From Eggerthellaceae bacterium (lineage in GTDB: Bacteria; Actinomycetota; Coriobacteriia; Coriobacteriales; Eggerthellaceae): 64,000 nucleotides of DNA. Shown here piece by piece: positions 8,512 to 60,169 of the stretch. The stretch spans positions 1,813 to 65,812 of the forward strand of contig JAFRGA010000081.1 of NCBI GenBank assembly GCA_017434045.1, read 5' to 3'. The translations under genes and the position numbers were made by a program. The notes beneath the pieces were generated by a model. It saw nothing but the letters and a program-made list of their open reading frames with translations, was not told where the DNA came from and searched no databases. Numbering within the stretch: the first letter of the stretch is position 1; the number at the start of each line of letters is the position of its first letter.

Positions 8512-8557
8512 CTTGCCCCCTCTCTTTCTTGCGTCGATGATGTCCGTGGCTTCCAAC

Positions 8558-30050: not shown

Positions 30051-30560
30051 TTAATGATGCTGAGGTCGAGCTATGAAACGCCGAATTGCATGCGCGCGGG
30101 GACGGCATGTTCGCCCGTATGCGCGCATTGCAATCGGCATGCGTTCAATGGAGTCTGTAATTCCTGCTCCCAATAGTATATAGGCGTTGCGCTCCATGAG
30201 CATGTCGGCCAGGTACCAGGGCCAGAAAGACGTCGATCCGTTGGCAACTGCAATTCGCCGTGATTGATCGATGTCGTCTGCCGTCACGCCGAACGGCGCC
30301 AGCTTAGGTGCCAATACATTGATGCTTGTACCGTATTCTTCTTCGAAATAATGAAAAATGTTAGCAAGATCTTCTTTTGAGTAGCCCGAGATGTCCACGC
30401 CGCCGCTTATGGCTTCCAGCACCTCTTCGGGAACTTTCTTGAACTCTTTCGGTACGCCAGGGTTGTTCTCTATTTGCTGCCTCCTTGGTCGTAGTTCTCC
30501 TTGCTGGCCATGATACAACACGCAAGGTTCGCTCGAGCCGGGCGCGGGGAACAGTTCCAT
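30051..30560 (-). CDS. hypothetical protein carrying a double-glycine leader-like motif (VPEEVLEAISGG); start codon unresolved
   Basis: The frame is open with an ATG at 30560. However, a strong AAGGAGG (30481-30487) sits 7 nt upstream of an in-frame ATA at 30473, and no canonical start follows it. Confidence 0.4.
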   Translation of the reverse strand: MELFPAPGSSEPCVLYHGQQGELRPRRQQIENNPGVPKEFKKVPEEVLEAISGGVDISGYSKEDLANIFHYFEEEYGTSINVLAPKLAPFGVTADDIDQSRRIAVANGSTSFWPWYLADMLMERNAYILLGAGITDSIERMPIAMRAYGRTCRPRAHAIRRFIARPQHH

Positions 30561-34916: not shown

Positions 34917-35016
34917 GGGGCGCGTTCCCCGAGTGCAAGGCGCGCCTCCCAGTGAAGGGCGTGCCCCCGGCGAAGGACGCGCCACCAGGCGAAAGGCGCG
35001 TCCCGCTCATTGAAAG
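34917..35016. repeat. five tandem ~19-22-bp degenerate repeats (GGCGCG-N-CCC-N-G-GAAG type)
   Basis: Read directly in the intergenic region between the M13 peptidase and the radical SAM gene. Confidence 0.7.
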
Positions 35017-35060
35017 TCTGCAACCTGGTGTGTCCAGGCATTCTGAGACTAGGAGGCACA

Positions 35061-35957
35061 ATGCATTACTCCGGCACGACCTTCCGCCCACCGTACGAGG
35101 CTAACTCGCTGCTGCTCCAAGTGACGAAGGGCTGCAGCCACAACAAGTGCGCCTTCTGCAGCATGTACCGCGACGTACCTTTCGAAGTGTCGCCCTTGCA
35201 CGAGGTCGAGGCCGATGTGGCCGAGGCGGCGTCGATGCGCCCGGGCGCGACGCGCGTCTTTCTGGAAAACGGCGATGCGTTCTGCCTGCCCGCCGAGCGC
35301 CTGCTCGAAATTGCGCGTATCATCAGGACGGGGCTTCCGCAGGTGAGGGAGATCACCGGCTACGCCCGCGTCCAGAACATCGCCACGAAGACCGACGAGG
35401 AGCTGCGCGCCCTTGCCCAGGCTGGCTTCACGGAGTGGAACATCGGGCTCGAGTCAGGCTTGGACGACGTGCTTTCCTTCATGAACAAGGGCTACGACGC
35501 CGCAACGGCACGCACGCAGCTGCTGCGCCTGGGTGATGCCGGGCTGCGCTTCAGCGTGAACATCATCAACGCGGCTGCGGGACCTGCGCGTATGGAGGAA
35601 CACGCCGCGGCAAACGCCCGCATCGTCAACGAGGTCAAGCCGTACCTGATCTTCGTCTCGCCCCTTCACGTGGATCCGGGCACGCCCCTCGAGGGCATGC
35701 TCGAGCGCGGCGAGTTCGTCGAGTCGACCATGGGCCAGTACATCGACGAGGAGGTTGCGTTCCTCGAGGCGCTCGATCTAGACGACTGCGTGTTCTTCGG
35801 TTCGCACATCAGCAACCCGGTGTCCGTGTTGGGCCGCCTGCCTCAGGACAAGCAGGCCCTGCTCGATGAGCTCGCGGAAGGAAAGGCCGAGTATCCGCAG
35901 GAAATGCTCGACGCGCATCCAAGAAAGGGCGCCGAGGGCATGATCATCGGCTGGTAG
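35061..35957 (+). CDS. radical SAM protein, function unknown
   Basis: It has the CX3CX2C motif CSHNKCAFC near the N-terminus. The ATG at 35061 follows AGGAGG. Confidence 0.8.
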   Translation: MHYSGTTFRPPYEANSLLLQVTKGCSHNKCAFCSMYRDVPFEVSPLHEVEADVAEAASMRPGATRVFLENGDAFCLPAERLLEIARIIRTGLPQVREITGYARVQNIATKTDEELRALAQAGFTEWNIGLESGLDDVLSFMNKGYDAATARTQLLRLGDAGLRFSVNIINAAAGPARMEEHAAANARIVNEVKPYLIFVSPLHVDPGTPLEGMLERGEFVESTMGQYIDEEVAFLEALDLDDCVFFGSHISNPVSVLGRLPQDKQALLDELAEGKAEYPQEMLDAHPRKGAEGMIIGW

Positions 35958-38358: not shown

Positions 38359-39378
38359 ATGATGAAGGTCCCTTCATACCCCGATTCTTTCGAGGTGCTC
38401 TGCTTGCAGGCGGCCGACGACGGGCGCGGAGACGTGCTCTTCGGCGAGAGTCTCGCCCGCGCGCGCAAGGTGGCGCGGCCTTTCATGATCGGCGAGGAGT
38501 TTCCCAGCGTTTACCTGGAGTTCCCGCTCATAGGCAAGCCGTTTCTCGACGTTACATTGCTCTACGGAAAGCTGAAGCCCGGCATGCGCGTCGAGTCGGA
38601 GGCGGCCGAGGGCACCGGGGAGATGATCGATTGGTTTGCGGGCGCTTGCTCGGATATCGGCGGCATTTGCTGCGGGTTCGAGCTCGACGTGAAGGACCCG
38701 GCGCTCCCTCGCGCGGCTGTCCATTTCCAACCGCGCGGAAGGCTGGAGCTGGTGGAGCCGTTCTGTGCGGCAATCGGCGAGCCGGAGCGCGCCAAGCTTT
38801 ACCTCGACATGGCGGCACGCATGCCGGATGAATGGCAGCTGTCGTTTTTCGGCCTGTTCAGAGGGCGGCCAGGATCGCCCTTGCGCGTCTGCGGCTACCT
38901 CGGAGAAGTGAAGCAAGCATGCGTGGAAGATCCGGCCTACCTCGCCGGCGTGTTCGACCAGATCGGTTTCAAGGCTTACGACGACGTGATGCTTGCGCAA
39001 GTGCGGGAAATCATGGCAACTGCCTCCGGCGCAATCGATTTCCAGTTCGACGTGTATGACGACGGGCATCTCGGCGACACGTTCGCCCTCGACATCCAGT
39101 TCGGCATCGAGCAGCCCGCCGCCGTGTTCGCGTCCTTCACGGACGGCCCCGCCGCGCGAGCGATGGGAAAGCTTGAGGAGCTGGGTGCGGCCGACGGACG
39201 CTGGAAGCTCGGCGGAGACGCTGCGTTCGCACGCTCGATGAATGTGGAGCTCGAGGACGGGAGCACAGGCCGCTATGCGTTCACGCTCATGCCCCAGTGG
39301 GTGAAGGCGCGCTGGACCGCAGGAGCCCTGCAGCCCTCGAAGCTCTATCATTTCGCCAACGCCTGCCTGTTAGAATAA
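38359..39378 (+). CDS. hypothetical 339-aa protein, first gene of the RiPP operon; five evenly spaced strand-turn-strand segments (possible ABBA/PT-barrel-like fold)
   Basis: The ATG follows AAAGGA. No catalytic motif was recognised. Repeated beta-hairpin-like segments are listed in the findings. Confidence 0.65.
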   Translation: MMKVPSYPDSFEVLCLQAADDGRGDVLFGESLARARKVARPFMIGEEFPSVYLEFPLIGKPFLDVTLLYGKLKPGMRVESEAAEGTGEMIDWFAGACSDIGGICCGFELDVKDPALPRAAVHFQPRGRLELVEPFCAAIGEPERAKLYLDMAARMPDEWQLSFFGLFRGRPGSPLRVCGYLGEVKQACVEDPAYLAGVFDQIGFKAYDDVMLAQVREIMATASGAIDFQFDVYDDGHLGDTFALDIQFGIEQPAAVFASFTDGPAARAMGKLEELGAADGRWKLGGDAAFARSMNVELEDGSTGRYAFTLMPQWVKARWTAGALQPSKLYHFANACLLE

Positions 39379-39380
39379 TT

Positions 39381-39440
39381 GCAACAACAGCAACAACCGC
39401 AGCAGCTGCAACAACCGCAGCAGCTGCAACAACCGCAACT
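39381..39440. repeat. 18-bp tandem repeat, ~3.3 units (two perfect copies of GCAGCAGCTGCAACAACC at 39399-39416 and 39417-39434)
   Basis: Read directly. It lies between the stop of the 339-aa gene and the rSAM start. Confidence 0.9.
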
Positions 39441-39499
39441 CGAGAGGCAATTCATGCGAACGCGGCCCCGTGGCGATGACCAAACGAAAGGGACAGAAG

Positions 39500-40894
39500 A
39501 TGACTGCAGAAGAGAGCAAGACGACTGAGCGGGCTGAATCCAGAACCGCCGGCGAGGCGGGCTGGCATGTCTCGCGCTACAACCTCTGCGCGAAGGTGCC
39601 CGACACGAAGATGGTCGCAATCGCCAACCTGTTCAAGGGCAACTGCGCCGAGTACACCCCCATCGAAATGTACCTGCTGAGCGTGCTGGAAGAGCTCGAC
39701 GAGAACCATCCCGTCATCGAGCGCTTCGCCAAGCGAGGCATCATCTGCAAATTCGACGAGCTGGCGGCCCTCGACACGATAGGCCGGGCCGGCTGCGGGG
39801 TTGCAGGCGGAGTCGGCCTCACCATCTGCCCGACGATGGGCTGCAATTTCGATTGCCCCTACTGCTTCGAAGACCATGGCCGCGGGAAGATGAGCCCCGA
39901 GGTGCAGGACGATATCGTGGCGCTCGCCGAGCGCATGCTCGAGACAAGCGGATCCAAGAACCTGTCCGTGACATGGTTCGGCGGCGAGCCGCTACTTGCG
40001 CCTAACGTCATCGACTCGCTTTCAAAGAGGCTTATGGCCCTTGTCGAAGAACGCGGCGGGGAGTATTCGGCGGGCATTATCACGAACGGGTACTTGTTCA
40101 CTCAAGAGATCGTCGACATGCTGGAACGCAACAAAGTCAACAGCTGCCAAGTGACTATCGACGGGCTCGGCGCCACTCACGACGCAACGCGCCGGCTCGC
40201 CAACGGCGGGCCCACTTTCGAGCGCATCACGGGCAACCTGCGCAATCTCAAGCTTCCGTTCAACGTGCACATCCGCCATAACGTGCATGAGGGGAATATG
40301 GCCGAGATAGACGAGCTCAAGGCATTCATCGAGAAGCTGGCGGAAGAATCGGGCAACGACCTCATGTACTACCCTGCACCGGTAACCGGCAGCCAGACCG
40401 CCGACGAGCGCGGCGAGCAGGTCGGGCTTCTGTGCGGCGCGGATGCGAGCGATGTGGGGATACGTCAAGAGGCAAGGCGGTTCCATGTCGGCCGCGGCAC
40501 CTATTGCGGGGCGCATCACCTCTGGGCCGTTGGCATAGATGACCAGGGGCGGCTCCAGAAATGCTGGGAAGCCGTCGACAAGCCGGACATCTCCTTCGGC
40601 ACCGCGCACGATTGGGACCCCAAGAACCCCCTCGAGACCGCGTCGAACCCCGACAACCTCACCATGTACCTGAACACGGCCTCGCCCGTGCCCGACGAGG
40701 AATGCCGTGAGTGCATATGGCTGCCCATGTGCGTGGGCGGCTGCCCCCATAAGCGCCTGTTCGGGGGGAGGCAATGCGTTGCGTTCAAGGACGAGCCCGA
40801 GAAGTACGTGCTTGCGCTGCATGCCCGCATCGGCGAGGACAAGGAGTCCGAAGAGCCCGAGGAGCCTGAGGGGTCCGAAGGGTCCGAGGCGTAG
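39500..40894 (+). CDS. radical SAM/SPASM-domain peptide maturase
   Basis: It has the SAM cluster motif CNFDCPYC and the C-terminal SPASM Cys motif CRECIWLPMCVGGCPHKR, plus additional Cys (YCGAHH, KCWE). The ATG at 39500 lies 6 nt after GAAAGGGA. Alternative starts are at 39470 and 39476. Confidence 0.88.
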   Translation: MTAEESKTTERAESRTAGEAGWHVSRYNLCAKVPDTKMVAIANLFKGNCAEYTPIEMYLLSVLEELDENHPVIERFAKRGIICKFDELAALDTIGRAGCGVAGGVGLTICPTMGCNFDCPYCFEDHGRGKMSPEVQDDIVALAERMLETSGSKNLSVTWFGGEPLLAPNVIDSLSKRLMALVEERGGEYSAGIITNGYLFTQEIVDMLERNKVNSCQVTIDGLGATHDATRRLANGGPTFERITGNLRNLKLPFNVHIRHNVHEGNMAEIDELKAFIEKLAEESGNDLMYYPAPVTGSQTADERGEQVGLLCGADASDVGIRQEARRFHVGRGTYCGAHHLWAVGIDDQGRLQKCWEAVDKPDISFGTAHDWDPKNPLETASNPDNLTMYLNTASPVPDEECRECIWLPMCVGGCPHKRLFGGRQCVAFKDEPEKYVLALHARIGEDKESEEPEEPEGSEGSEA

Positions 40895-41058
40895 CTGCCC
40901 CTTCGTTCGAGAGCGGCTTTTGCCAGAAATTTCCCCTTCCTGCAATTTGAGCGGAAGATGCTCGAAGTCATGCCTGTTCGTTGTATGATGGCAGGTAGCG
41001 TGCGAACAGGCAATTTGCGTGCACTCGCGGATACGCGAGGATTTCGAGAGGAACAACG

Positions 41059-41568
41059 ATGGCAGACGCCTCTAGCTCGATATTCAACAAGAAGGCCACG
41101 GAGAAGCTACGCAGCCCCGATGACCTCGACAAGTACGTACGCGTGACAAACCCAAGCGTGTGGGTGGTGCTCGCCGCATGCCTTTGCCTGATCTTCGCCC
41201 TGCTTGCTTGGGGCTTCTTCGGGGCCGTGACCACCAACGTCGCGAAAACCGGCGTGGCGATTGACGGGAAGGTGATGTGCTTCTTGTCGTCCGACGAAAT
41301 CGCCGGGGTCGACCCGGGCGATATCGGCAATGTGAGCGGGGAGCGCATGCATGTCGCAGAAGTCTCCGCCGTCCCGGTTTCACCTGGTGAAGCGAAAAAG
41401 ATCTTGAAGGACGACTACCTGGTGAGCGCGCTTGTGAGCGGCGATTGGGCGTATGTCGTCACGTTCGAGGGCGACACGTCGGAGCTTTCCGAGGGCGTCC
41501 CGCTCAAAGTCAACATCACGACGAGCCGCGTATCGCCCATTTCGCTGATACTGAGGAACTGGGGCTAG
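41059..41568 (+). CDS. NHLM-type bacteriocin system secretion protein (short HlyD-like, single TM)
   Basis: The N-terminus (FNKKATEKLRSPDDLDKYVRVTNPSVWVVLAACLCLIFALLAWGFFG) matches the conserved start of this family. The gene sits immediately upstream of the paired ABC exporters. Confidence 0.72.
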   Translation: MADASSSIFNKKATEKLRSPDDLDKYVRVTNPSVWVVLAACLCLIFALLAWGFFGAVTTNVAKTGVAIDGKVMCFLSSDEIAGVDPGDIGNVSGERMHVAEVSAVPVSPGEAKKILKDDYLVSALVSGDWAYVVTFEGDTSELSEGVPLKVNITTSRVSPISLILRNWG

Positions 41569-41571
41569 TGG

Positions 41572-43731
41572 ATGGGCAAGGTCGCTAAGGTCCCACAAGT
41601 CATGCAGATGGAGGCGCTCGAATGCGGCGCCGCCTGCCTGACGATGATCCTGGCTTACTACGGGCGGTGGGTGCCGCTCGAGAAGGTGCGGGCCGACTGC
41701 GGTGTGTCGCGCGATGGCTCGAAGGCGTCCAACGTGCTCAAGGCCGCGCGCAGCTACGGGCTGGCCGCCAAGGGCATGACGTATTCCGCCTCGGCCATAC
41801 GCAGGAAGGGCAAGTTCCCCTGCATCATTTTCTGGAACTTCAACCACTTCGTGGTGCTCGCCGGGTTCAAGGGCAAAAACGCCGTGATCAACGATCCCGC
41901 CCGCGGCGAGATCAAAGTGCCCATGAAGGAGTTCGAGGAAAGCTTCACGGGCGTCGCCCTCACGTTCGAGAAGACCGACGCCTTCGAAGAGGGCGGAACC
42001 AAGCCCAGCACGATAAAGTATGCGAAGAAGCGCCTCGAAGGGTTGGGGGCGGCTATCGCGTTCGTCATGCTGACGGCTGCCATCACCTCGTTCGTGACGG
42101 TGATCGACACCTCGATGGGCCAGGTGTTCCTCGACCAGATTCTCAGCGGCAACAACCGTGACTGGCTTATGCCGCTCTTAGGCCTCATGGTTGTGCTCGC
42201 GTCCATCATCGGGCTCGTCTCGGTGCTCAACGCCGTGTACCTCGTGCGCATCCAGGGCAAGATCGCGGTGGTGAGCTCGTCGCGCTTCATGCGCCACCTG
42301 CTCCACTTGCCGGTGGAGTTCTATTCGCAGCGCATGGTAGGCGACCTGCAGCAGCGCCAATCGGCGAACGAGACCATCGCCTTCGCGCTCGTGGGCCAGC
42401 TCGCGCCAATCCTCATTAACGGGGTCATGCTGATCATCTACCTCGTGATCATGGTGCAGTACAGCTTGCTGCTCACGGTCGTAGGCCTGTTCACGGTGGT
42501 CATAAACGCCCTGCTCGCGCGCTACATCTCGAAGAAGCGCGTGAACATCTCGCGCTCTGCGACGGCAACTGCCGGCAAGCTCTACGCCACCACCGTGAGC
42601 GGCATCGAGATGATCGAGACCATCAAGGCTTCCGGCGCCGAGGTCGGCTACTTCGGACGCTGGGCCGGCTACCAGGCGTCGGTGAACGAGTCCACCGCAC
42701 GCACGACGCTGTTGAACGAGTACCTCGGCGCCGTGCCGGCCGCCCTCACGCAGCTCACCAACGTTATCGTGCTCGTGCTGGGCATCTGGCTGATCGTCGA
42801 GGGCAGGTTCACCCCTGGTGCACTGCTCGTGTTCACGGGCTTCCTCGCTTCGTTCATGATGCCGGTCACGCAGATCATCAACCTGGGGCAGACCGTCCAG
42901 GAGATGCAGACGCAGATGGAGCGCGTGGAAGACGTCATGCGCTACGAGGTGGACGTTCCGGAGGAGCCGGAGGACACGCAGGGCGTGCGGACTTCTGCGG
43001 GGCGCGAGAAACTGTACGGGCAAGTTGACCTGGAAGGCGTGACCTTCGGCTACTCGCCGTTGGAGCCGCCGCTCATCAAGGACTTCAACCTGCACCTGGA
43101 GCCGGGTAGCTGGGTCGCGCTCGTGGGCAGCTCGGGCTGCGGGAAATCCACCATCGCGAAGCTGGTCTCGGGGCTCTACAAGCCTTGGGAAGGCGAGGTC
43201 CGCTTCGACGACACGCCCTTGAGCGAGATACCGCGGCCGATTTTGCGCGGGTCGCTGGCCGTCGTGGACCAGGACATCATCACGTTCGACGACTCGGTTT
43301 CCGACAACGTGAAGCTGTGGGACCGCTCGGTCGAGGACTTCGAAGTCATCCTGGCCTGCCGCGATGCGGAAATCAGCGATATCATCAACGAGCGCGAGGG
43401 CGGTTACTCGAGCCGTATCCTGCCTGGCGGGCGCAACTACTCGGGCGGGCAGCTGCAGCGCCTCGAGATCGCACGCGCGCTTGCGCAGGACCCCACGATC
43501 ATCATTTTGGACGAGGCCACGAGCGCGCTCGACGCGCAGACTGAGGACGCGGTCATTCGCCGCATCCGCGACAGGGGTATCACCTGCATAGTGGTGGCGC
43601 ACCGCCTTTCGACCATCCGCGACTGCGACGAGATCATCGTGCTCGAGGATGGCCAGGTGGTCGAGCGCGGCACGCACGACGAGCTGATTGCCGCCGACGG
43701 CGCTTACGCAGACCTTGTGAGGAACGACTAG
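41572..43731 (+). CDS. bacteriocin export ABC transporter with N-terminal C39 peptidase domain (peptidase/permease/ATPase)
   Basis: It has the C39 catalytic Cys context QMEALECGAACLTMILAYYG, six TM segments, Walker A GSSGCGKST and the signature YSGGQLQR. Confidence 0.92.
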   Translation: MGKVAKVPQVMQMEALECGAACLTMILAYYGRWVPLEKVRADCGVSRDGSKASNVLKAARSYGLAAKGMTYSASAIRRKGKFPCIIFWNFNHFVVLAGFKGKNAVINDPARGEIKVPMKEFEESFTGVALTFEKTDAFEEGGTKPSTIKYAKKRLEGLGAAIAFVMLTAAITSFVTVIDTSMGQVFLDQILSGNNRDWLMPLLGLMVVLASIIGLVSVLNAVYLVRIQGKIAVVSSSRFMRHLLHLPVEFYSQRMVGDLQQRQSANETIAFALVGQLAPILINGVMLIIYLVIMVQYSLLLTVVGLFTVVINALLARYISKKRVNISRSATATAGKLYATTVSGIEMIETIKASGAEVGYFGRWAGYQASVNESTARTTLLNEYLGAVPAALTQLTNVIVLVLGIWLIVEGRFTPGALLVFTGFLASFMMPVTQIINLGQTVQEMQTQMERVEDVMRYEVDVPEEPEDTQGVRTSAGREKLYGQVDLEGVTFGYSPLEPPLIKDFNLHLEPGSWVALVGSSGCGKSTIAKLVSGLYKPWEGEVRFDDTPLSEIPRPILRGSLAVVDQDIITFDDSVSDNVKLWDRSVEDFEVILACRDAEISDIINEREGGYSSRILPGGRNYSGGQLQRLEIARALAQDPTIIILDEATSALDAQTEDAVIRRIRDRGITCIVVAHRLSTIRDCDEIIVLEDGQVVERGTHDELIAADGAYADLVRND

Positions 43732-43732
43732 C

Positions 43733-45916
43733 ATGAGTTGGATGGAATCGCAAATAGACGAGCGCGCGCGGCTAGACTCCGCGATGATCGAGCGTGCGTA
43801 CGCGGAGCTTGCATCCAGCGTCATCAACTCCAACAGCGCTCCGCAGATCGGGTTGGACGACATCGAGCAGAACGACGGCGCCGTGAAGGCCTGCCTGAAG
43901 TTCATCCGGGTGGAGCCCGGGGAGGTGCCCGAGGGCATCACGGACAAGAACGAGCGCATCGACTGGCTCTGCCGGCCCTCGGGGACGATGCACCGTATAG
44001 TTCAGCTCGACGAGGGATGGTACAAGCGCGCGTTCGGCGCCCTGCTCGGCCATCTCGACACCGGCGATGCGGTGGCCCTCTTGCCCCGTGGCATGGGCGG
44101 TTACTACTTCCTGGAGCCGGGAAGCGGTCGGAAGGTGAGGGTGGACGAGAAAGTGGCGTCGCACATAGCCTCCGATGCCGTGTTCTTCTACAAGCCCTTG
44201 CCCGCGCGTCCGCTCAAGGTCCGGGACCTGGCCTTATTCATCCACGGCGCCTTCGAGAAAACCGATTACCTGCTCGTGATCGCGGCGGCGCTCGCCGTCA
44301 CGCTCATCGGGCTGTTCCCCGCGTGGGCGAACGAGATCGCGTTCGGTATCGTGGCGCCCTCCAAGCAGGCCAGCCTCATCGCGCCGATTGGCGCGCTGCT
44401 CGCAGGCGTGGCGATTTCGACCGCCCTCATCAGCGCGTGCCGCAATATCGTGATGGCGCGTGTGTCCATGAAGCTCGACGTCACGTGCGAGGCGGCTGCC
44501 TTTGCGCGCGTCCTCTCGCTTCCCACGTCGGTGTTCAAGCAGTATGCGGCGGGCGATTTGGCCAACCGCGTGGCGAACATCACGCTGCTTTCGCGGACGC
44601 TCACCTCGATCTCGCTGGGGTCGGGGTTGACCTCGCTCTTCTCGCTTGTGTACATCATCCAGATCGGCTGCTATGCGCCGCCTCTGGCGGTTCCCGCATT
44701 TGTGATCATCGCCGTGGAGGCCGCGCTGACCATCGTCGTCACGAACCTCACGGCGCGTTACGCGAAAGCCACGATGGAGGCTTCCGCGAAGCTCTCCGGT
44801 ACGGTCACCGCGCTTCTGAACGGCATCCAGAAGATCAAGCTCGCCGGCGCGGAGGAGCGCGCTTTCGCGAAGTGGGCGCACGGTTATGCGCCGTACGCGC
44901 GCGCCACCTACAACAGGCCTATTATCGTCCGCGCCCTGCCGGCGTTCGTGACGCTCGTAAGCCTGTTCGGTACCATCGTCATCTACTACTTTGCCGGAAC
45001 AGCCCAGATCTCCGTCGCGAACTACATGGCCTTCAACGTCGCGTTCGGCCAGGCGACGGCCGCCATCATGGCGCTTTCCCAAGTTGCAAGCGAAGCGGCC
45101 GAGATCAGGCCCATGATCGAGCTGGCCGCGCCCATCTTGGAAGCCGAGCCCGAGATCGCCGAGGACAAGCCGAGCGTCGAGGACCTGACGGGCTCCATCG
45201 AGGTCACGGGCCTCACGTTCCGCTACAGCGAGAACAGCCCCTACATCGTGAAGGACCTCTCGTTCACCGTGCGTCCTGGCGAGTACGTGGCGCTCGTGGG
45301 CAAGAGCGGTTGCGGCAAGTCCACCATCATGCGCCTACTGCTTGGGTTTGAGCAGCCCGAACGAGGCACCGTGTTCTATGGACAGTATGACGTGAGCAAG
45401 GTTGACCTTCGGTCGCTGCGGCAGCGCATCGGCGTGGTCATGCAGGACGGCAAGCTGTTCATGGGCGACATCGCGTCCAACATCACCATCTCGACGCCGA
45501 CGGCCACCCTCGACGATGCATGGGCAGCTGCCGAGCTGGCAGGCATTGCGGACGACATCCGCAAGATGCCCATGGGCATGCAGACGCTCGTGACGGAAGG
45601 TTCGGGCGGCATCTCCGGCGGGCAGAGGCAGCGTATCATGATTGCCCGCGCCATCTGCGGGAATCGCAAGATCTTGATGTTCGACGAGGCCACGAGCGCG
45701 CTCGACAACAAGACGCAGAAGCATGTGTCCGATTCGCTCGACTCGCTGGATTGCACGCGCGTCGTGGTGGCCCACCGGCTCTCCACCGTGCGCCATTGCG
45801 ACCGCATCCTGGTCGTGGACGGCGGGCGCATCGCCGAGGAAGGCACCTACGACGAGCTCATTGCCATGGATGGCCTGTTCGCCGAGCTCGTTGCTCGCCA
45901 GCGGCTGGATACGTAG
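43733..45916 (+). CDS. partner bacteriocin export ABC transporter permease/ATPase (no peptidase Cys; N-terminal accessory domain)
   Basis: It has Walker A GKSGCGKST and the signature ISGGQRQR. The start is 1 nt after the upstream stop. The N-terminal ~150 aa lack the C39 Cys. Confidence 0.9.
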   Translation: MSWMESQIDERARLDSAMIERAYAELASSVINSNSAPQIGLDDIEQNDGAVKACLKFIRVEPGEVPEGITDKNERIDWLCRPSGTMHRIVQLDEGWYKRAFGALLGHLDTGDAVALLPRGMGGYYFLEPGSGRKVRVDEKVASHIASDAVFFYKPLPARPLKVRDLALFIHGAFEKTDYLLVIAAALAVTLIGLFPAWANEIAFGIVAPSKQASLIAPIGALLAGVAISTALISACRNIVMARVSMKLDVTCEAAAFARVLSLPTSVFKQYAAGDLANRVANITLLSRTLTSISLGSGLTSLFSLVYIIQIGCYAPPLAVPAFVIIAVEAALTIVVTNLTARYAKATMEASAKLSGTVTALLNGIQKIKLAGAEERAFAKWAHGYAPYARATYNRPIIVRALPAFVTLVSLFGTIVIYYFAGTAQISVANYMAFNVAFGQATAAIMALSQVASEAAEIRPMIELAAPILEAEPEIAEDKPSVEDLTGSIEVTGLTFRYSENSPYIVKDLSFTVRPGEYVALVGKSGCGKSTIMRLLLGFEQPERGTVFYGQYDVSKVDLRSLRQRIGVVMQDGKLFMGDIASNITISTPTATLDDAWAAAELAGIADDIRKMPMGMQTLVTEGSGGISGGQRQRIMIARAICGNRKILMFDEATSALDNKTQKHVSDSLDSLDCTRVVVAHRLSTVRHCDRILVVDGGRIAEEGTYDELIAMDGLFAELVARQRLDT

Positions 45917-45934
45917 GGACGTACTTGAGTTTTC

Positions 45935-46504
45935 CTATCGGCTGCTTGCCAAGTGGGACATCGTCATCGTGAACACGATGGGCGCCCAAGCGGCGTACTT
46001 GCGTGGCTCGGCCTGGAGCTCTGCGGCAAGCGTTTCGAAATCAATCCAGCGGACTTCGCTCGCCTCGGCGGGGTCGGGGTCTATCGTTCCTTCGCAGCGG
46101 CCGACGATCACGTGGTCGTATTCGTATTCGCACAGCCCGTTGTCGAACTCGGCGCGGTAGACGAACGCGCAGATCTCGTGCAGATCAATCGCCTCGCACC
46201 TGAGCTCTTCGTGCACACGCCGATAGGCGGCCTCTATGGTCTCCTCGCCCAGGCGCGGGTGGGAGCAGCACGAGTTGGCCCAAAGCCCGCCCGAGTGGTA
46301 TTTCATCATCGAGCGCAACGCGAGCAGCAGCTCCGGCCCGTTCTCCCCTTCGCGTACGAGCACGACCGAGAACGCGCGGTGGAGGAGCCCTTCCACGTGC
46401 GCCTGCAGTTTCGTGGCGGCGCCGGTTTCGCGGTCGAGTCCATCGACGAGAATCAACATGTCATCGCGAGCGGGATCAGCCGCCATTTTCTCGTCAAGTT
46501 CCAT
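45935..46504 (-). CDS. idi: isopentenyl-diphosphate delta-isomerase, type 1 (Nudix fold)
   Basis: Its motifs align with those of E. coli Idi: LHRAFSV, KYHSGGLWANSCCSHPRLGE and CEYEYDHV. GGAGG RBS. Confidence 0.85.
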   Translation of the reverse strand: MELDEKMAADPARDDMLILVDGLDRETGAATKLQAHVEGLLHRAFSVVLVREGENGPELLLALRSMMKYHSGGLWANSCCSHPRLGEETIEAAYRRVHEELRCEAIDLHEICAFVYRAEFDNGLCEYEYDHVIVGRCEGTIDPDPAEASEVRWIDFETLAAELQAEPRKYAAWAPIVFTMTMSHLASSR

Positions 46505-46586
46505 GATTACCTCCGGTTTTAACCGCGCAAGGCGGTGCGTTTTGCTGTGCGAACGATGCTAGTTACTGTTGGAGAGGGGAGCCAGG

Positions 46587-46781
46587 CTACTTTAGACTGA
46601 GGCAAGGAAGATAGTCTTCACAAAAGCCTTTACACCAGCCACCTCCACCGCCCGATACGGCCTCCAGCTCAGCGTCGGAGAGGCTGTATCCCTCCTCCTT
46701 GGCGAGTGTCAGGATGTCTTTCGACGTCTTGCAGGCTTTCACTTTCTCTTGCAGTTCAGGTGAGAGGTCCTCGAAGTTCAT
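46587..46781 (-). CDS. Nif11-like leader peptide RiPP precursor (64 aa), core GGGWCKGFCEDYLPCLSLK
   Basis: The protein reads MNFEDLSPELQEKVKACKTSKDILTLAKEEGYSLSDAELEAVSGG|GGGWCKGFCEDYLPCLSLK. The ATG at 46781 follows GGAGG. It has a double-Gly cleavage motif and a 3-Cys core. Confidence 0.8.
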   Translation of the reverse strand: MNFEDLSPELQEKVKACKTSKDILTLAKEEGYSLSDAELEAVSGGGGGWCKGFCEDYLPCLSLK

Positions 46782-47186
46782 TTCCGCCTCCGTTCCATGC
46801 GTTGACGCTTCCCTCATGTTTCATTGTACGAGAGAACATGCGCTGTCATTTCAAAAGACTTGCTTTTATGCAGTCGATTTGGCGTTTTTTGATAGGCTGA
46901 GGCTCGACGAATAGCGCTGGGTGGGGCTTCGCCTGTTTGGCAGAGATCGAAAGAGTGCCAGCAGGCGAGGGGCAACAGAAGATGGCAAAAATTTGCGGAA
47001 CGGTACGATTTTGGGGATGCGGACGTTTTTGGACCAGTGGCCTTTGCCACTTAGCCCAGCCGCAATTAGCGCGATTCTCGACGGCCCCTTCTCGGAATCG
47101 GCCGATGACGGTATTCTGAGCATAGACCGACGGATACGTGTCCTAGAAACAAGCGGTTGAGGTCGGGCTTGATGATGTTGGGACAG

Positions 47187-47336
47187 GTTTCGAACGGTTT
47201 CGGCCACTTGCCGAGTGCGTTTCCGAAGGTTGAAGCGGTTTCGTATGGCTTGGCCGCTTGCCGAGTGTGTTCGAAGGCAAGGCGGATTACGGATTGTTTC
47301 GACCGCGTGCCGCACGTGTTTCGCAGGTCGGGCAAG
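47187..47336. repeat. ~50-58-bp degenerate tandem repeats (GTTTCG..GGCC.CTTGCCGAGTG.GTT..CGAAGG)
   Basis: Two full units plus one partial unit were read directly in the 607-bp divergent intergenic region between the precursor and the hydrolase genes. Confidence 0.7.
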
Positions 47337-47388
47337 ATGTCGCCTTCGCGTCGTGAGAGTAAGAACAAGAACCGAAAGAGGCCTGTTC

Positions 47389-48198
47389 ATGAACGAGAGA
47401 CGCTACACCACCGACAAAGGGACCATCCGCTATTGGATAAGCGATCCCATGCCCGGGGCGAAGACGCTCGTGTTCCTGCCAGGGCTGACGGCCGATCACC
47501 ATCTGTTCGACAAGCAGGTCGAGTACTTCGAGCCGCGCTGCAACATGTTCGTGTGGGACGCGCCGGGCCATGCGGCGTCGAGGCCGTTCGAGCTGTCGTT
47601 CTCGCTTGCCGACAAAGCGCGCTGGCTTCATGAAATCCTTGCAGTCGAAGGCGTTGAGCAGCCCGTTCTCGTCGGTCAGTCCATGGGCGGCTACGTGAGC
47701 CAGGCTTTCATGCAGTGCTTTCCCGGTGAGACAAAGGGATTCGTCTGCATCGACTCGGCGCCGCTGCAGCGCGAGTACTACACTGCCGCAGAGCTCTGGC
47801 TGCTGAAGCGAATGACCCCGGTGTATAGGCTTTATCCTCACAAGGCGCTCGTGCGCGATGGCGTGAAAGGTTGCGCCACCACGGAGTACGGGCAGGCGCT
47901 GATGAAGGCCACCTGGGATGAGTCCGTGTATGACCACGAGTATTTCTGCGCGCTCGCAGGGCACGGGTTTGGCATTCTTGCGGAGGCGATCGAGCTCGAG
48001 CTTCCGTATGAAATCGATTGTCCTACGCTGCTCATCTGCGGGGAGAAGGATGCTGCGGGTTCAACGCGTCGCTACAACCGCGAGTGGACGAAGAAGACCG
48101 GGCTTCCGCTTGTGTGGATTGAGGGCGCGGGACACAACTCGAACACTGACCGACCCGACGAGGTGAACGCGCTCATCGCCGAATTCGCTGGTGTGTGA
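47389..48198 (+). CDS. alpha/beta-fold hydrolase
   Basis: It has the nucleophile elbow GQSMGG, the N-terminal LVFLPGLTADHHLF and a C-terminal GAGHNSN. The ATG at 47389 follows GAAAGAGG. Confidence 0.85.
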   Translation: MNERRYTTDKGTIRYWISDPMPGAKTLVFLPGLTADHHLFDKQVEYFEPRCNMFVWDAPGHAASRPFELSFSLADKARWLHEILAVEGVEQPVLVGQSMGGYVSQAFMQCFPGETKGFVCIDSAPLQREYYTAAELWLLKRMTPVYRLYPHKALVRDGVKGCATTEYGQALMKATWDESVYDHEYFCALAGHGFGILAEAIELELPYEIDCPTLLICGEKDAAGSTRRYNREWTKKTGLPLVWIEGAGHNSNTDRPDEVNALIAEFAGV

Positions 48199-48318
48199 TG
48201 CGTCGGCACTGGATGGTTTCAAGCTTTCCAGCATCTCCTTGAGCAACGGAGACGGTTGCGGGATGGCGGGGCGGGTATACAATACGGTTACTATTTCACC
48301 AACAGATCGGGGGATCCC

Positions 48319-49425
48319 ATGACGTATTTGGGCGAGGAAATCGGGAAGCTGGGCTTTGGACTCATGCGGTTGCCGCGACTGGAGGACGGCAGCTTCGACC
48401 ACGAGCTGATCTGCCAGATGGTCGATCGCTTCCTGGAGGCGGGCTTCACATACTTCGACACCGCCTGGATTTACAGCGGAAGCGAAGAGGAAATCGCGAA
48501 GGCGCTCGTGCAGCGCCATCCGCGGGAGAGCTATCAGCTGGCCACGAAGGGCATCTCGTGGATCGGCTGCAAGACGCCCGAAGACGCGCAGGCGCATTTC
48601 CACCAGTCGCTCGAGCGCACGGGCGCGGGTTACTTTGACTTCTACCTGCTGCACATGACGGGCGGCCAGCGCACGCAAGTGTTCGAGCAGTTCGGTATGT
48701 GGGATTTCGTCGCGCAGAAGAAAGCGGAGGGCCTCATCCGCCACGTGGGCTTCTCGCATCACGGGACGGCCGAAGAGCTCGACGAGATCCTGACCGCCCA
48801 TCCCGAGGTCGAGTTCGTGCAGCTGCAGGTGAACTACCTCGATTGGGAGAATCCCCTCAACCAGAGCCGCGCCTGCATGGAGGCGGCAGCCAAACATAAC
48901 GTGCCCGTCGTGGTCATGGAGCCCCTGCGGGGCGGCCTTCTGGCCGATCCCCCTGCAAGCGTGGCCAAAGTGTTCGCCGAGGCCGAGCCCAAGCAATCGC
49001 CTGCCGCATGGGGCCTTCAGTTCGTGGCGAACCAGCCGAACATCATCACGGTGCTGTCGGGCATGAACGCGATGGAGCAGCTGGAAGACAACATCGCCGC
49101 GCTGAGCGGCTTCAAGGGTTTTGCGCCTGGGCAAGCCGAGGTCATCGAAGCGGCGCTCGCCGAGTTTGACAAGTTCGATCTCGTTCCGTGCACCGGCTGC
49201 GATTACTGCGCGAAGGTTTGCCCGGAGAACATCGGCATCCGCGGGTCGTTCATAGCCATGAACGCTGACATCATGTTCGGGCGCCACGTGCAGGAGTGGC
49301 TCAACTGGGGCGGCGGCAAGAACCCGCCGAGCGCCTGCATCGAATGCCACGCCTGCGAAGAGGCCTGCCCGCAGGGTATCTCCATCGTCGAGGAGCTGAA
49401 GCGCGCCGTGCCCCTCATCGGGTAG
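48319..49425 (+). CDS. aldo/keto reductase with C-terminal 4Fe-4S ferredoxin-like domain
   Basis: It has the AKR N-terminus (LGFGLMRLP, FTYFDTAWIY) and C-terminal Cys clusters CTGCDYCAKVCP and CIECHACEEACP. Confidence 0.85.
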   Translation: MTYLGEEIGKLGFGLMRLPRLEDGSFDHELICQMVDRFLEAGFTYFDTAWIYSGSEEEIAKALVQRHPRESYQLATKGISWIGCKTPEDAQAHFHQSLERTGAGYFDFYLLHMTGGQRTQVFEQFGMWDFVAQKKAEGLIRHVGFSHHGTAEELDEILTAHPEVEFVQLQVNYLDWENPLNQSRACMEAAAKHNVPVVVMEPLRGGLLADPPASVAKVFAEAEPKQSPAAWGLQFVANQPNIITVLSGMNAMEQLEDNIAALSGFKGFAPGQAEVIEAALAEFDKFDLVPCTGCDYCAKVCPENIGIRGSFIAMNADIMFGRHVQEWLNWGGGKNPPSACIECHACEEACPQGISIVEELKRAVPLIG

Positions 49426-51828: not shown

Positions 51829-54210
<2,382 letters not shown>

Positions 54211-54605: not shown

Positions 54606-56657
<2,052 letters not shown>

Positions 56658-56805
56658 GAGTTGTCCCCTCGCATCGGCCTGTGCAATATCGTAGTGTTTA
56701 GTCGAGATTCTTGCTAGTGCCGATACGAATAAAAGCAATCATGCAGCCATGAAAAAACCGGGCTGCGCGCTCTTCGCACAACCCGGCTCCCTTCCGCGAG
56801 AAAGG

Positions 56806-57313: not shown

Positions 57314-57571
57314 GATGTGCCTCCTTCAGCTCTAACGCATGTGCGGCAACAATCGCCGCAATCTTCTGACGACATTATAAGGTCGATGAACGCATTCGGG
57401 CGCTACGACCGACCGAAGGCATGCTGTGACGATGTAAAATGATACCCGCACGCTATGATTGACCGCACATGTTGCTATGCTTAACAAGCGGTTGAATCAT
57501 TCGCTTGATTTGGACAATTGAACGATTTGGGCGCCAGGGATCACGGGTTGGCTTTCGAGGAAGACCAGGGC

Positions 57572-60169
57572 ATGAAAAAAGTAGCCATAATCATCGCCAA
57601 CGTGGTCATCATTGCCGCCATTTTGATCTTCGTCTTCCTCTACACCAGATACGAGAGCGGGGAGTCTTACAAGAGGCAGGTGGAGCACTTCGAGAACACC
57701 ACGACCTCCTTGGAGCAGGTGACGGAGAATTACCTGGAAGGCGAGCAGAGGATTTGCGACGTCTGGGCTCGCTATATCAACAACGAGGCCATGACCATGG
57801 AAGAGGCCGTCGATTACATCCGCGCCTCGCATGTGCTCGAGAATACGTCGGCGCACCTGGTTTCCCTCGACACGCTCACGGGGCTCTCCACGCGCCCACA
57901 GCAGGGCACGACCGACGACTACGCCGTTTCCTATGAGCGGATGGGCCTTCTGGAGGACGTGGATTGGATCGACGACATCGGGAAGTCGATCAACATCTCC
58001 CGTGCTTTCACCAACCCGATGAACGGCGAGCAGTCGCTGGCTTTCTGCAACAAGGTCACGCTGAAAGACCCGGAAAGCGGAAAGCCCGAAGAGGCGGTCC
58101 TTCTGCGGATAATCCCCATCTCGGAGCTTGAGCAGAAATGGATTTTCCCGCAGGAGACCTTTGCGGACGCCGAGCTCTCCATGATCGACGCCAACGGCGA
58201 CTACATCCTCAAGGGACGCAGCTTCAAGAACTCCAGCTTCTTCGAGTTCTACAACTCTTACAATCCGTCGGATCCCGCGTCGTCGAAGGAGCTGTTCGAC
58301 AGGATTACCTCGTCGACAGGTTCCGTCACGATGTCCGACTCGCAAGGGCAGGAGTGCGTACTCGCTTATACTCCCGTTGCCGCCACTGCCGGGTGGACGT
58401 TGCTGGGCTTCGTGCCGGCGAAGGACCTTCATGTGGATGCCGAAAACTGGCTGCTGGTCGGCGTCGTTTCCGCCGGCTTGCTCATACTGTTCCTCTGCGA
58501 TTTGTTCTACATGCTCTACTTGAACAAGCGCTTCCAGCTCGCAGCCAAGGAAGCGGAATCCGCGAACAAGGCGAAGACCGACTTCCTCTCCACCATGTCC
58601 CACGACATCCGCACGCCGATGAACGCCATCATCGGCCTCACGACGATCGCCGAGAAGAACCTCGGGGACGTGGAGTCGACGAGGGAAAGCCTGCGGAAAA
58701 TCGGCCTTGCCAGCAACCACCTGCTGACGCTAATCAACGACATCCTCGATATATCCAAGGTGGAAAGCGGGAAACTCAAGCTGAGCCCCGTGACGTTCTC
58801 CATCGTGGAGACGGTCGAGAACCTCGTCAACATCTCCCAGCCGATGATCAAGGAAAAGAACATCGAGTTCAGCTTCCATATCAACCCGATAGAGAAGGAA
58901 TACCTGTACACGGACCAGCTGCGTCTGAACCAGGTTTACATCAACATCCTCTCCAACGCCATCAAGTACACGGAGCCCGGCGGGCGCGTCAGCGTGGACA
59001 TGCGCGAGGAAGCAAGCGCCGAACCCGGCTGCGTGCAGATGACGTATGTCGTATCCGACACGGGCATCGGCATGACCCCGGAATTCATGGCGAACATGTA
59101 CCAACCCTTCTCGCGTCAGATAGACAGCCGCGTCAACAGCATTCAGGGAACGGGCCTTGGTCTGGCCATCACGAAGCAGATGGTCGACCTGATGGGCGGA
59201 ACGATCGACTGCCAAAGCGAGCAAGGCAAGGGAACGACCTTCACCGTCGTGCTGGACATCCCCGTGGCCGACAGGCAGCGCGACGATATGGAGCTCGAGC
59301 CCATCGACGTCCTGATCGTCGACGACGACGAGACCATGCTCGAGACGGCGACCGATTCCCTTGAGTCCCTTGGCGCCACGGTGGAGCAGGCGCGAAGCGG
59401 GCTGGAAGCCCTTGGCATGATCGAGCACAGGCATCTTGCCGGGCGTGATTACGGCGTTGTCATCGTCGACTGGAGAATGCCCGACGTCGATGGCATCGAG
59501 ACCATCAACCGGATCCGCTCGGATGTGGGCACGGAGATCCCGATCCTGCTCATTTCCGCATACGACTGGGCGGACATCGAGGACAAGGCGAAAGAGGCGG
59601 GCGCGAACGGTTTCGTCAGCAAGCCGCTGTTCCGCTCCACGCTCTACGACAAGATCAACGACCTGATCGGCAAGGAGTCCAGCTCCCAGGAGCCGGAGGA
59701 CGATTACTCCGACCTGCAGGGGATGCGCATCCTCATTGCCGAGGACAACGACATCAACTGGGAGATCATTTCCGCCATGCTCGCCATGTTCGGGGTCGAC
59801 ACCGACCGTGCGGAAAACGGGCGGATTTGCGTGGACATGATGCGCGAGGCCGAAGAAGGCAGCTACCAGCTGATCTTCATGGACGTGCAGATGCCGGAGA
59901 TGAACGGCCTCGATGCAACGAGGGCGATTCGGAGCATGGAGGATCCCTGGGCGTCCTCTATCCCGATTGTCGCGATGACGGCAGACGCGTTCTCCGAGAA
60001 CGTCACGGAATGCCTGAACGCGGGTATGAACGGGCATATTGCAAAGCCCGTTGATATGAAGTTGGTCATCAAGGAAATCCGGAGAACAACGGAAGAAAGG
60101 GGCGGTCATGAAAAGGATGCTGATCGTGCTCTTAGCAGCGCTGACGGTTCTGGCTCTGACGGCATGTAG
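57572..60169 (+). CDS. hybrid sensor histidine kinase / response regulator with extracytoplasmic Cache-like sensor and two receiver domains
   Basis: It has TM1 (VAIIIANVVIIAAILIFVFLY), a periplasmic domain of about 270 aa and TM2. It also has the H-box SHDIRTPMNAIIGL, an HATPase region (GTGLGLAITK) and two REC domains. Confidence 0.9.
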   Translation: MKKVAIIIANVVIIAAILIFVFLYTRYESGESYKRQVEHFENTTTSLEQVTENYLEGEQRICDVWARYINNEAMTMEEAVDYIRASHVLENTSAHLVSLDTLTGLSTRPQQGTTDDYAVSYERMGLLEDVDWIDDIGKSINISRAFTNPMNGEQSLAFCNKVTLKDPESGKPEEAVLLRIIPISELEQKWIFPQETFADAELSMIDANGDYILKGRSFKNSSFFEFYNSYNPSDPASSKELFDRITSSTGSVTMSDSQGQECVLAYTPVAATAGWTLLGFVPAKDLHVDAENWLLVGVVSAGLLILFLCDLFYMLYLNKRFQLAAKEAESANKAKTDFLSTMSHDIRTPMNAIIGLTTIAEKNLGDVESTRESLRKIGLASNHLLTLINDILDISKVESGKLKLSPVTFSIVETVENLVNISQPMIKEKNIEFSFHINPIEKEYLYTDQLRLNQVYINILSNAIKYTEPGGRVSVDMREEASAEPGCVQMTYVVSDTGIGMTPEFMANMYQPFSRQIDSRVNSIQGTGLGLAITKQMVDLMGGTIDCQSEQGKGTTFTVVLDIPVADRQRDDMELEPIDVLIVDDDETMLETATDSLESLGATVEQARSGLEALGMIEHRHLAGRDYGVVIVDWRMPDVDGIETINRIRSDVGTEIPILLISAYDWADIEDKAKEAGANGFVSKPLFRSTLYDKINDLIGKESSSQEPEDDYSDLQGMRILIAEDNDINWEIISAMLAMFGVDTDRAENGRICVDMMREAEEGSYQLIFMDVQMPEMNGLDATRAIRSMEDPWASSIPIVAMTADAFSENVTECLNAGMNGHIAKPVDMKLVIKEIRRTTEERGGHEKDADRALSSADGSGSDGM

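Follow-up and report, generated by a model that had tools for sequence, protein, structure and literature searches.

A 2026 review lists as peptide and protein prenyltransferases the eukaryotic CaaX enzymes, the cyanobactin ABBA (alpha-beta-beta-alpha) enzymes and the trans-isoprenyl-diphosphate-synthase (IDS)-like enzymes, namely ComQ, ChrPC and PalQ (PMC13290415). In Moorena producens, the ABBA prenyltransferase MppC depends on the leader and attaches a geranyl group to Trp of a Nif11-leader lanthipeptide that has been macrocyclised beforehand; cyanobactin prenyltransferases work on peptides that have already lost the leader and undergone N-C macrocyclisation (PMC12715784). Here we examine a 64,000-nucleotide stretch of an Eggerthellaceae bacterium (GCA_017434045.1, contig JAFRGA010000081.1; the whole stretch is hereafter called the window), in which a short open reading frame (ORF) at 46587-46781 belongs to a cluster of two convergent operons. 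The plus strand carries genes for a prenyltransferase, a radical S-adenosylmethionine (rSAM) enzyme, a short HlyD-like protein and two ABC exporter subunits (ABC1 and ABC2), and the minus strand carries the ORF and idi, an isopentenyl-diphosphate isomerase gene. We consider it reasonably probable that the ORF encodes the precursor of a doubly modified RiPP (ribosomally synthesised and post-translationally modified peptide), in which the fourth core residue (Trp4) is prenylated, Cys residues are cross-linked and the leader is cut off after G45. The gene content, predicted folds, hidden Markov model (HMM) memberships, synteny and conservation pattern on which this reading draws were observed.

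Translation, HMMs and homologues define a precursor gene of 64 amino acids plus a stop codon on the minus strand (46587-46781), made up of a leader of residues 1-45 (46647-46781), a core of residues 46-64 with the sequence GGGWCKGFCEDYLPCLSLK (46590-46646) and the stop codon itself (46587-46589). The minus-strand translation of window positions 46587-46817 reads ...MNFEDLSPELQEKVKACKTSKDILTLAKEEGYSLSDAELEAVSGGGGGWCKGFCEDYLPCLSLK up to the stop; the 64-residue form starts at the ATG at 46779-46781 and has the full sequence MNFEDLSPELQEKVKACKTSKDILTLAKEEGYSLSDAELEAVSGG-GGGWCKGFCEDYLPCLSLK. Direct reading places a Shine-Dalgarno sequence, GGAGG, 5 nt upstream of this ATG (46787-46791, minus strand), and a longer form of 76 amino acids is without such a site. 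No sigma-70-like promoter was found around the gene. The identical peptide is a called gene with the same neighbours in 66 metagenome-assembly blocks, and in diverged copies (L004, L007 and L008) the 195-nt coding sequence differs by a single synonymous base, whereas the flanks, compared without gaps, show differences at many sites. Taken together, these comparisons indicate that the precursor gene is real.

The original prediction, made from the letters of the DNA, had called the leader Nif11-like, and HMM scoring agreed: the leader passed the cutoffs of both NCBIfam TIGR03798, leader_Nif11 (33.2 bits against 32.3, a narrow margin; E 4.6e-8), and Pfam Nif11, PF07862 (38.6 bits against 23.8; E 1.3e-9). 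On these scores the precursor is filed as a member of the Nif11-leader family and, because the matches span only the C-terminal two thirds of both models, its leader is taken to be a short one of the Nif11 type. An HMM built from 90 homologues located a single precursor in the 64-kb window, as had been predicted. The leader ends in ...LEAVSGG (residues 39-45), a cleavage motif of the Gly-Gly type. The original prediction had regarded the exact C39 cut as ambiguous within a run of five Gly, and the run is indeed there (residues 44-48); however, an alignment of about 100 homologues holds the leader end ...[AV]SGG at a fixed position, so that the cut is predicted to follow G45 and the ambiguity is largely resolved. 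The core also has, as described from the sequence earlier, a single residue each of Trp, Tyr and Phe together with three Cys. The Cys spacing given at that time, Cx4C and Cx6C, needs correction by one residue per gap: the Cys residues stand at core positions 5, 9 and 15, that is C-x3-C-x5-C, with Trp4 directly followed by Cys5.

Alignment of the homologues showed a nearly invariant leader followed by hypervariable cores. Trp occurs within the first six residues after the GG in 92 of 102 distinct cores, compared with a mean of 40 and a maximum of 56 in 2000 shuffles of the cores, and in several of the cores that have no Trp its place is taken by Tyr. A W-x(0-4)-C arrangement is found in 83 of the 102, and Cys in 96; four of the six Cys-free cores contain Trp, which in three cases is among the first six residues. 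Across these homologous sequences, Trp within six residues of the GG, usually with Cys after it, is the only conserved feature of the cores, and the window core offers both this conserved candidate acceptor and Cys as candidate donors. The original prediction offered the Trp, Tyr and Cys side chains for other, generic tailoring and mentioned idi in passing; it missed the ABBA-type prenyltransferase encoded nearby, which points to Trp, the residue conserved across the family.

That protein of 339 amino acids is the product of the first gene of the facing operon (38359-39378, plus strand). Searches for sequence relatives of the window protein in Pfam, NCBIfam (release 20) and the PDB (phmmer, and two family profiles against the PDB) returned chance matches only; among 73 diverse members of its family none matched any prenyltransferase family of Pfam, nor did NCBIfam match the window protein or two distant members, which by sequence places it outside the described prenyltransferase families of all three resources. 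An AlphaFold2 model from a 121-sequence alignment was built of repeated helix-strand-strand-helix units with high confidence (predicted local distance difference test score, pLDDT, 96.3; predicted template modelling score, pTM, 0.93). In a Foldseek search of the PDB with this model, the 40 best matches were all ABBA aromatic prenyltransferases, mostly indole prenyltransferases, with 5-DMATS (6zrz, E 2.5e-6) at the top and PriB, DMATS1, IptA, FamD1, AtaPT, CloQ, CymD, MpnD and NotF among the others; their E-values ran from 2.5e-6 to 9e-3, and then jumped to about 0.1 for unrelated folds. On its predicted structure, the only route by which it was identified, the protein is an ABBA aromatic prenyltransferase, the cluster encoding an alpha-beta-beta-alpha barrel, and such an enzyme makes sense both of idi and of the conserved Trp.

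The conservation within the family fits an enzyme of this kind. Six residues (D110, R170, D279, R281, K316 and Y330) are invariant in the 73 members, down to about 23% identity, and six more (E54, D64, R176, Q229, D231 and K328) are nearly so. Conserved basic, tyrosine and acidic residues alternate along the predicted strands (R176/C178/Y180, Q229/D231, K316/R318 and K328/Y330), and in the model they may line a barrel that binds the prenyl diphosphate. The family is large, with 523 clusters at 90% identity and 257 representatives at 50% identity; its named members are annotated as hypothetical proteins, and the best match to the window protein among GTDB species representatives is 68% identical.

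The second gene of the precursor operon, idi, encodes a type 1 isopentenyl-diphosphate delta-isomerase (IDI) of 189 amino acids (45935-46504, minus strand; Pfam NUDIX). It exceeded the cutoff of the equivalog model NF002995 (148.5 bits against 127) and fell slightly below that of TIGR02150 (97.7 against 105.8), and its motifs NSCCSHP and CEYEYD presumably correspond to the catalytic Cys67 and Glu114/Glu116 of the E. coli enzyme. The original prediction had paired the precursor with idi in one operon. The two genes do share a strand, idi lies 82 bp downstream, no terminator-like site was found on the minus strand between them and the pairing is kept in all metagenome copies, so that co-transcription is plausible. 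Nor was an attenuator or stable RNA structure found between them, the intergenic RNA being less structured than shuffled sequence (z +1.65). Supply of dimethylallyl diphosphate (DMAPP) is the probable function of idi, which recurs near the prenyltransferase gene in other species (L036, L049/L091, L072 and L011/L046). At 45916-45935 the stop codons of ABC2 and idi converge with 18 bp between them, which leaves no room for separate terminators; transcription from the two convergent operons may therefore collide or overlap.

The third enzyme, of 472 amino acids (39476-40894, plus strand, with an alternative GTG start at 39470), combines on Pfam, TIGR04085 and AlphaFold2 evidence a domain resembling a RiPP recognition element (RRE) with rSAM and SPASM domains, the make-up of a peptide maturase. 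It matched Pfam Radical_SAM, carries a CxxxCxxC motif and has a full SPASM domain (TIGR04085, 42.2 bits against a cutoff of 27). Its nearest curated families are TIGR04463, Clo7bot, CefB, FlmE/OhkG, geopeptide and PapB, which are Cys-directed peptide maturases, and the best sequence match in the PDB was CteB (5wgg, E 3e-9), a thioether synthase. The AlphaFold2 model was of moderate confidence overall (pLDDT 75.8), with a well predicted N-terminal domain of three strands and three helices, of the RRE type, which gives the SPASM maturase a peptide-binding-type N-terminal domain. Foldseek matched the model to TigE (the best match), CteB, anSME, SkfB, SuiB and ChlB; the structure search did not settle the chemistry, since TigE, CteB, anSME, SkfB and SuiB all match, and the link made by SuiB, for example, joins Lys to Trp. 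The simplest assumption is that the enzyme forms thioethers at Cys. The earlier proposal that the core is a thioether substrate of the SPASM enzyme is thus plausible and incomplete: the SPASM domain, the Cys-directed nearest families and the CteB match speak for it, while the scores below the equivalog cutoffs and TigE as the best fold match do not.

Export and leader removal are predicted to fall to the pair of ABC proteins, an NHLM-type C39 exporter pair within the cluster. ABC1 (41572-43731, plus strand), a C39 peptidase-ABC exporter with Pfam domains Peptidase_C39, ABC_membrane and ABC_tran, scored 937.6 bits against TIGR03796 (cutoff 853.3) and carries the motifs ECGAAC, NHFVVL and NDPA, which we take to be the C39 catalytic triad; its predicted task is to remove the leader by cleavage behind the Gly-Gly and to export the core. 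ABC2 (43733-45916, plus strand), the second subunit, scored 702 bits against TIGR03797, just under the cutoff of 709.4. They are preceded by a short HlyD-like accessory protein of 169 amino acids (41059-41568, plus strand), which matches only profile positions 1-60 of the 421 of TIGR03794 (E 2.5e-13). Many related loci have a homologue of this 169-residue protein ahead of the ABC pair, and with this recurrence the gene looks like a genuine short accessory protein rather than a truncated pseudogene.

We compared the surroundings of the prenyltransferase gene across lineages by scanning one genome per GTDB species, which gave 75 loci, and by searching for system genes among the ORFs of the 32 loci in which it was flanked by 5 kb or more of sequence on each side. 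The loci come mostly from Coriobacteriia of ruminant and other guts (Eggerthellaceae, Atopobiaceae, Olsenella intestinalis and Denitrobacterium detoxificans), with a few in Clostridia (Lachnospiraceae bacterium AC3007 and Christensenella sp. UBA4263). A Nif11-like precursor was present in 12 of the 32 well-flanked loci, a second prenyltransferase paralogue in 11 and the C39-ABC pair in 7. In five loci (L045, L049, L071, L073 and L077) the precursor lies immediately upstream of the prenyltransferase gene, and in Clostridia the order precursor-rSAM-prenyltransferase is kept at 30% prenyltransferase identity; the prenyltransferase and the precursor are thus genetically linked across lineages.

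Several variants of this arrangement were seen. In Christensenella sp. UBA4263 and metagenome-assembled Clostridia genomes (L087, L088 and L089, at about 8100-10980) there is a cassette of three genes, with an rSAM/SPASM enzyme of 512 amino acids, a prenyltransferase of 334 amino acids and a precursor whose core of eight residues, WEIHGCSG, is the smallest there; no dedicated exporter was found nearby. A locus without an rSAM gene (L091, 393-11032; also L049) contains the short HlyD gene, C39-ABC and ABC2 genes and, further along, a NUDIX/idi gene, a DUF7005 gene, a precursor gene of 87 amino acids and the prenyltransferase gene, the core of this precursor having a Zn-ribbon-like CxxC...CxxC pattern. 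Tandem prenyltransferase pairs are frequent (L058, 8973-11017; also L063, L028, L033, L052 and L078), in which a close paralogue is directly preceded by a distant one that matches the window protein at E about 1e-30 and has no Pfam match; the window itself has a single copy. Near the prenyltransferases of L043, L049 and L085 lies a second class of GG-leader peptide with a long, conserved, Cys-free core, GG[FY][IL]YHDEGD..HR.E.FYV.D..G.VVMRLDS.AKAEHWA.NLRT, which is unlike the short hypervariable cores. Other precursors are orphans dispersed in the genome, as at the P0054, P0065 and P0029 loci, which have no tailoring genes.

Two carriers are available in culture. Lachnospiraceae bacterium AC3007 (L079, KK211272.1) has a precursor with the core INWLCEQDLNCLTR, the rSAM and prenyltransferase genes, the short HlyD gene and the ABC pair, and Olsenella intestinalis KCTC 25379 (L063, NZ_JALGRK010000001.1) has an rSAM gene followed by two prenyltransferase genes. 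The existence of these strains makes the idea directly testable.

Further genes in the window were considered as parts of the system and set aside. The alpha/beta hydrolase gene at 47215-48198 follows the cluster only in the same or very close species, and the same limited linkage was found for the aldo-keto reductase with an iron-sulfur domain at 48256-49425 and for the genes of a major facilitator superfamily transporter, an AI-2E transporter, a HhH-GPD protein and an M13 peptidase. A second rSAM gene (35010-35957, plus strand; 315 amino acids) lies 2.4 kb upstream of the cluster, has weak matches of the B12-rSAM and MnmL types and was rejected since it, too, accompanies the cluster only in the same or very close species and does not co-occur with the prenyltransferase gene elsewhere. 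On the minus strand, an ORF of 169 amino acids (30051-30560) has an ATG preceded by a Shine-Dalgarno sequence and a stretch resembling a double-glycine leader, KKVPEEVLEAISGG and then VDISGYSKEDL...; it had no Pfam or NCBIfam match and no homologue in the fetched loci, and could be a second substrate of the C39 exporter or a chance ORF.

What follows is a pathway inferred from these observations, in all its chemical steps and their order as well as in prenyl donor, acceptor atom and biological role. The 45-residue Nif11-type leader would bring the peptide to the tailoring enzymes by docking; the rSAM enzyme would bind it, probably through its N-terminal RRE-like domain, and the prenyltransferase may be leader-dependent, as MppC is. 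The rSAM/SPASM enzyme would introduce cross-links into the core at Cys5, Cys9, Cys15 or more than one of them, most likely as sulfur-to-carbon thioethers, and the ABBA prenyltransferase would place a prenyl group on the family-conserved aromatic residue with which the cores begin, Trp4 in this peptide. Most simply this would be a dimethylallyl group from DMAPP, made by IDI from isopentenyl diphosphate, because the isoprenoid gene of the cluster is an isomerase and there is no chain-elongating synthase. The C39 domain of ABC1 would then cut after G45 and the ABC pair would export a 19-mer, whose mass would rise by 68.06 Da per prenyl group and fall by 2.02 Da per cross-link; with one prenyl group and three cross-links the calculated [M] is 2136.95. 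The product could be antimicrobial or could act in signalling.

A number of observations count against this pathway. The prenyltransferase assignment draws on a predicted structure whose Foldseek matches have moderate TM-scores (0.41-0.57) and 7-14% identity, the substrates of the closest structural relatives are free Trp or small molecules and not peptides, and no cyanobactin prenyltransferase was among the 50 Foldseek matches listed. The rSAM enzyme scored far below all equivalog cutoffs (202 bits against 525 for TIGR04463, 113 against 340 for PapB and 65 against 425 for SCIFF), which leaves it outside the characterised thioether-forming families, and TigE, its best fold match, is not a thioether synthase. 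Only 11 of the 32 well-flanked loci contain the partner rSAM gene and only 2 contain idi, whereas 9, such as L090, have none of the other system genes within reach. Lastly, some homologous cores show Zn-ribbon-like CxxC...CxxC patterns, which are not obvious thioether motifs.

The rSAM enzyme might make no thioethers at all, and instead form a Trp-Cys or other carbon-carbon or carbon-sulfur bridge with the (prenylated) indole, or an unrelated side-chain change. We regard this as unlikely: the distance from the equivalog cutoffs, fold neighbours that include TigE, SuiB and anSME besides CteB, and a minimal core, WEIHGCSG, which offers little besides Trp and Cys, would all be in keeping with it. 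However, the nearest curated families (TIGR04463, Clo7bot, CefB, PapB and SCIFF) all act on Cys-rich peptides, and nearly all of the cores contain Cys. A bolder and similarly unlikely idea is that the locus is a founding member of an undescribed RiPP class of anaerobic gut bacteria, in which an ABBA prenyltransferase of a new family lipidates the Trp with which the core begins and the rSAM enzyme then joins the neighbouring Cys to the indole or the prenyl group; the W-x(0-4)-C pair would then dictate a Cys-to-indole or Cys-to-prenyl linkage, which would be new chemistry, and the many hypervariable, dispersed precursors, handled by a single enzyme set, would form a natural combinatorial library or a pherotype-like signalling code in rumen and gut.

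A second alternative concerns the role of the product more than its structure. At a distance of 5-13 kb from the precursor there are three genes for hybrid histidine kinase/receiver proteins (51829-54210 and 54606-56738 on the minus strand, 57518-60169 on the plus strand); they do not adjoin the precursor, and their matches at other loci show generic kinase similarity only. In other genomes (L009, L013 and L014) orphan Nif11 precursors stand beside GGDEF genes. The kinases and the GGDEF genes hint at a signalling role, and the product might be a strain-specific pheromone like ComX rather than an antimicrobial, which we hold to be possible and on balance unlikely. The short hypervariable cores around one conserved, presumably prenylated Trp mirror ComX (PMC13290415), and no immunity gene is evident at the locus. 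On the other hand, the prenyltransferase is of the ABBA and not the ComQ type, with no match to ComQ or polyprenyl-synthase models among the cluster genes (38359-46781), and no ComP-like receptor is adjacent or co-conserved. Furthermore, C39-ABC export and the presence of more than one precursor in a genome, with five in L046, resemble the diversity of bacteriocins or prochlorosins.

It is also conceivable that the product is a thioether-only peptide of the ranthipeptide type, and that the prenyltransferase and idi are mere neighbours serving a free indole or another aromatic small molecule. The closest structural matches of the prenyltransferase are small-molecule indole prenyltransferases, the well-flanked loci without RiPP genes nearby would be expected on this account, and the rSAM gene with three Cys would suffice for a ranthipeptide-like product. 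We nonetheless judge it improbable. The prenyltransferase gene is the first of the operon that also encodes the rSAM enzyme and the exporter, precursors stand directly upstream of it in five other lineages and share a three-gene cassette with it in Clostridia, idi adjoins the precursor itself, and the one invariant feature of the hypervariable cores is an aromatic residue, not Cys. Prenylation of another residue, giving S-prenyl Cys5 or O- or C-prenyl Tyr12 while Trp serves for recognition or is the residue that the rSAM enzyme modifies, is comparably doubtful: it would account for the frequent W-x(0-4)-C pair and for the Tyr that replaces Trp in some cores, but most of the Cys-free cores keep Trp, generally near the core start, one such precursor (L045) lies directly upstream of the prenyltransferase gene, and the structural neighbours of the enzyme are indole prenyltransferases.

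The reading we favour thus remains a peptide prenylated on Trp4 and cross-linked at Cys. The product would probably carry both a lipid tag and cross-links, a combination that we did not find described: in the literature covered, which is incomplete and leaves room for prior publication, there was no description of a Nif11 leader together with prenylation and rSAM/SPASM modification. Lipidation is among the most useful modifications of peptide drugs. If the reading is correct, it brings in a further prenyltransferase family, a large one for which neither Pfam nor NCBIfam has a model, provides the first pairing known to us of peptide prenylation with rSAM/SPASM cross-linking, and implies that Coriobacteriia and Clostridia of the ruminant gut make hypervariable prenylated peptides.

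Compared with known systems, the locus shares one part or another with each. The SCIFF and ranthipeptide systems (CteB and PapB-freyrasin; TIGR04463, Clo7bot and CefB) likewise have an RRE-rSAM-SPASM maturase and a short Cys-containing core, whereas the window system has a Nif11-type leader, an added prenyltransferase and idi, and a conserved Trp in place of a Cys pattern. In the prochlorosins and other Nif11/NHLP systems (Haft et al. 2010, cited in PMC12715784), a very conserved leader likewise precedes hypervariable cores, precursors are dispersed or orphan, and one enzyme set serves them together with an NHLM-type C39 ABC pair; the prochlorosins, however, are lanthipeptides of marine cyanobacteria, and the tailoring set of the window consists of an rSAM enzyme and a prenyltransferase. 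ComX of Bacillus resembles the window peptide in being a short, highly polymorphic ribosomal peptide with one conserved Trp, on which isoprenylation has been demonstrated; its partner ComQ is a trans-IDS-like enzyme, and ComX systems have no rSAM enzyme, C39 exporter or Nif11 leader, all three of which are found here. The cyanobactin prenyltransferases PagF, KgpF and LimF have the same ABBA fold and prenylate aromatic and other peptide side chains with DMAPP or geranyl diphosphate, but the window cluster has no cyanobactin protease or macrocyclase, and the Foldseek matches are of the DMATS/CloQ type. Because sequence-membership tests fail for both enzymes, we file the system neither under the ranthipeptides nor under the cyanobactin-type prenylated peptides, and describe it as working like a hybrid of both.

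MppE/MppC is the nearest precedent. Both systems have a Nif11-type leader, a soluble, cluster-encoded prenyltransferase of the ABBA type and a Trp in a short core as the acceptor (proposed in our case), and we propose for the window, too, a macrocyclisation with the leader still attached. The two, compared by description, differ in that the window leader is short (45 amino acids), idi lies beside the precursor and the prenyltransferase has no Pfam or NCBIfam model. The hosts also differ, the window system belonging to anaerobic gut Coriobacteriia and Clostridia and MppC to cyanobacteria. Finally, the macrocycle of MppE/MppC is made by a class II lanthionine synthetase, whereas the window has no LanM and would rely on its rSAM/SPASM enzyme for the corresponding step.

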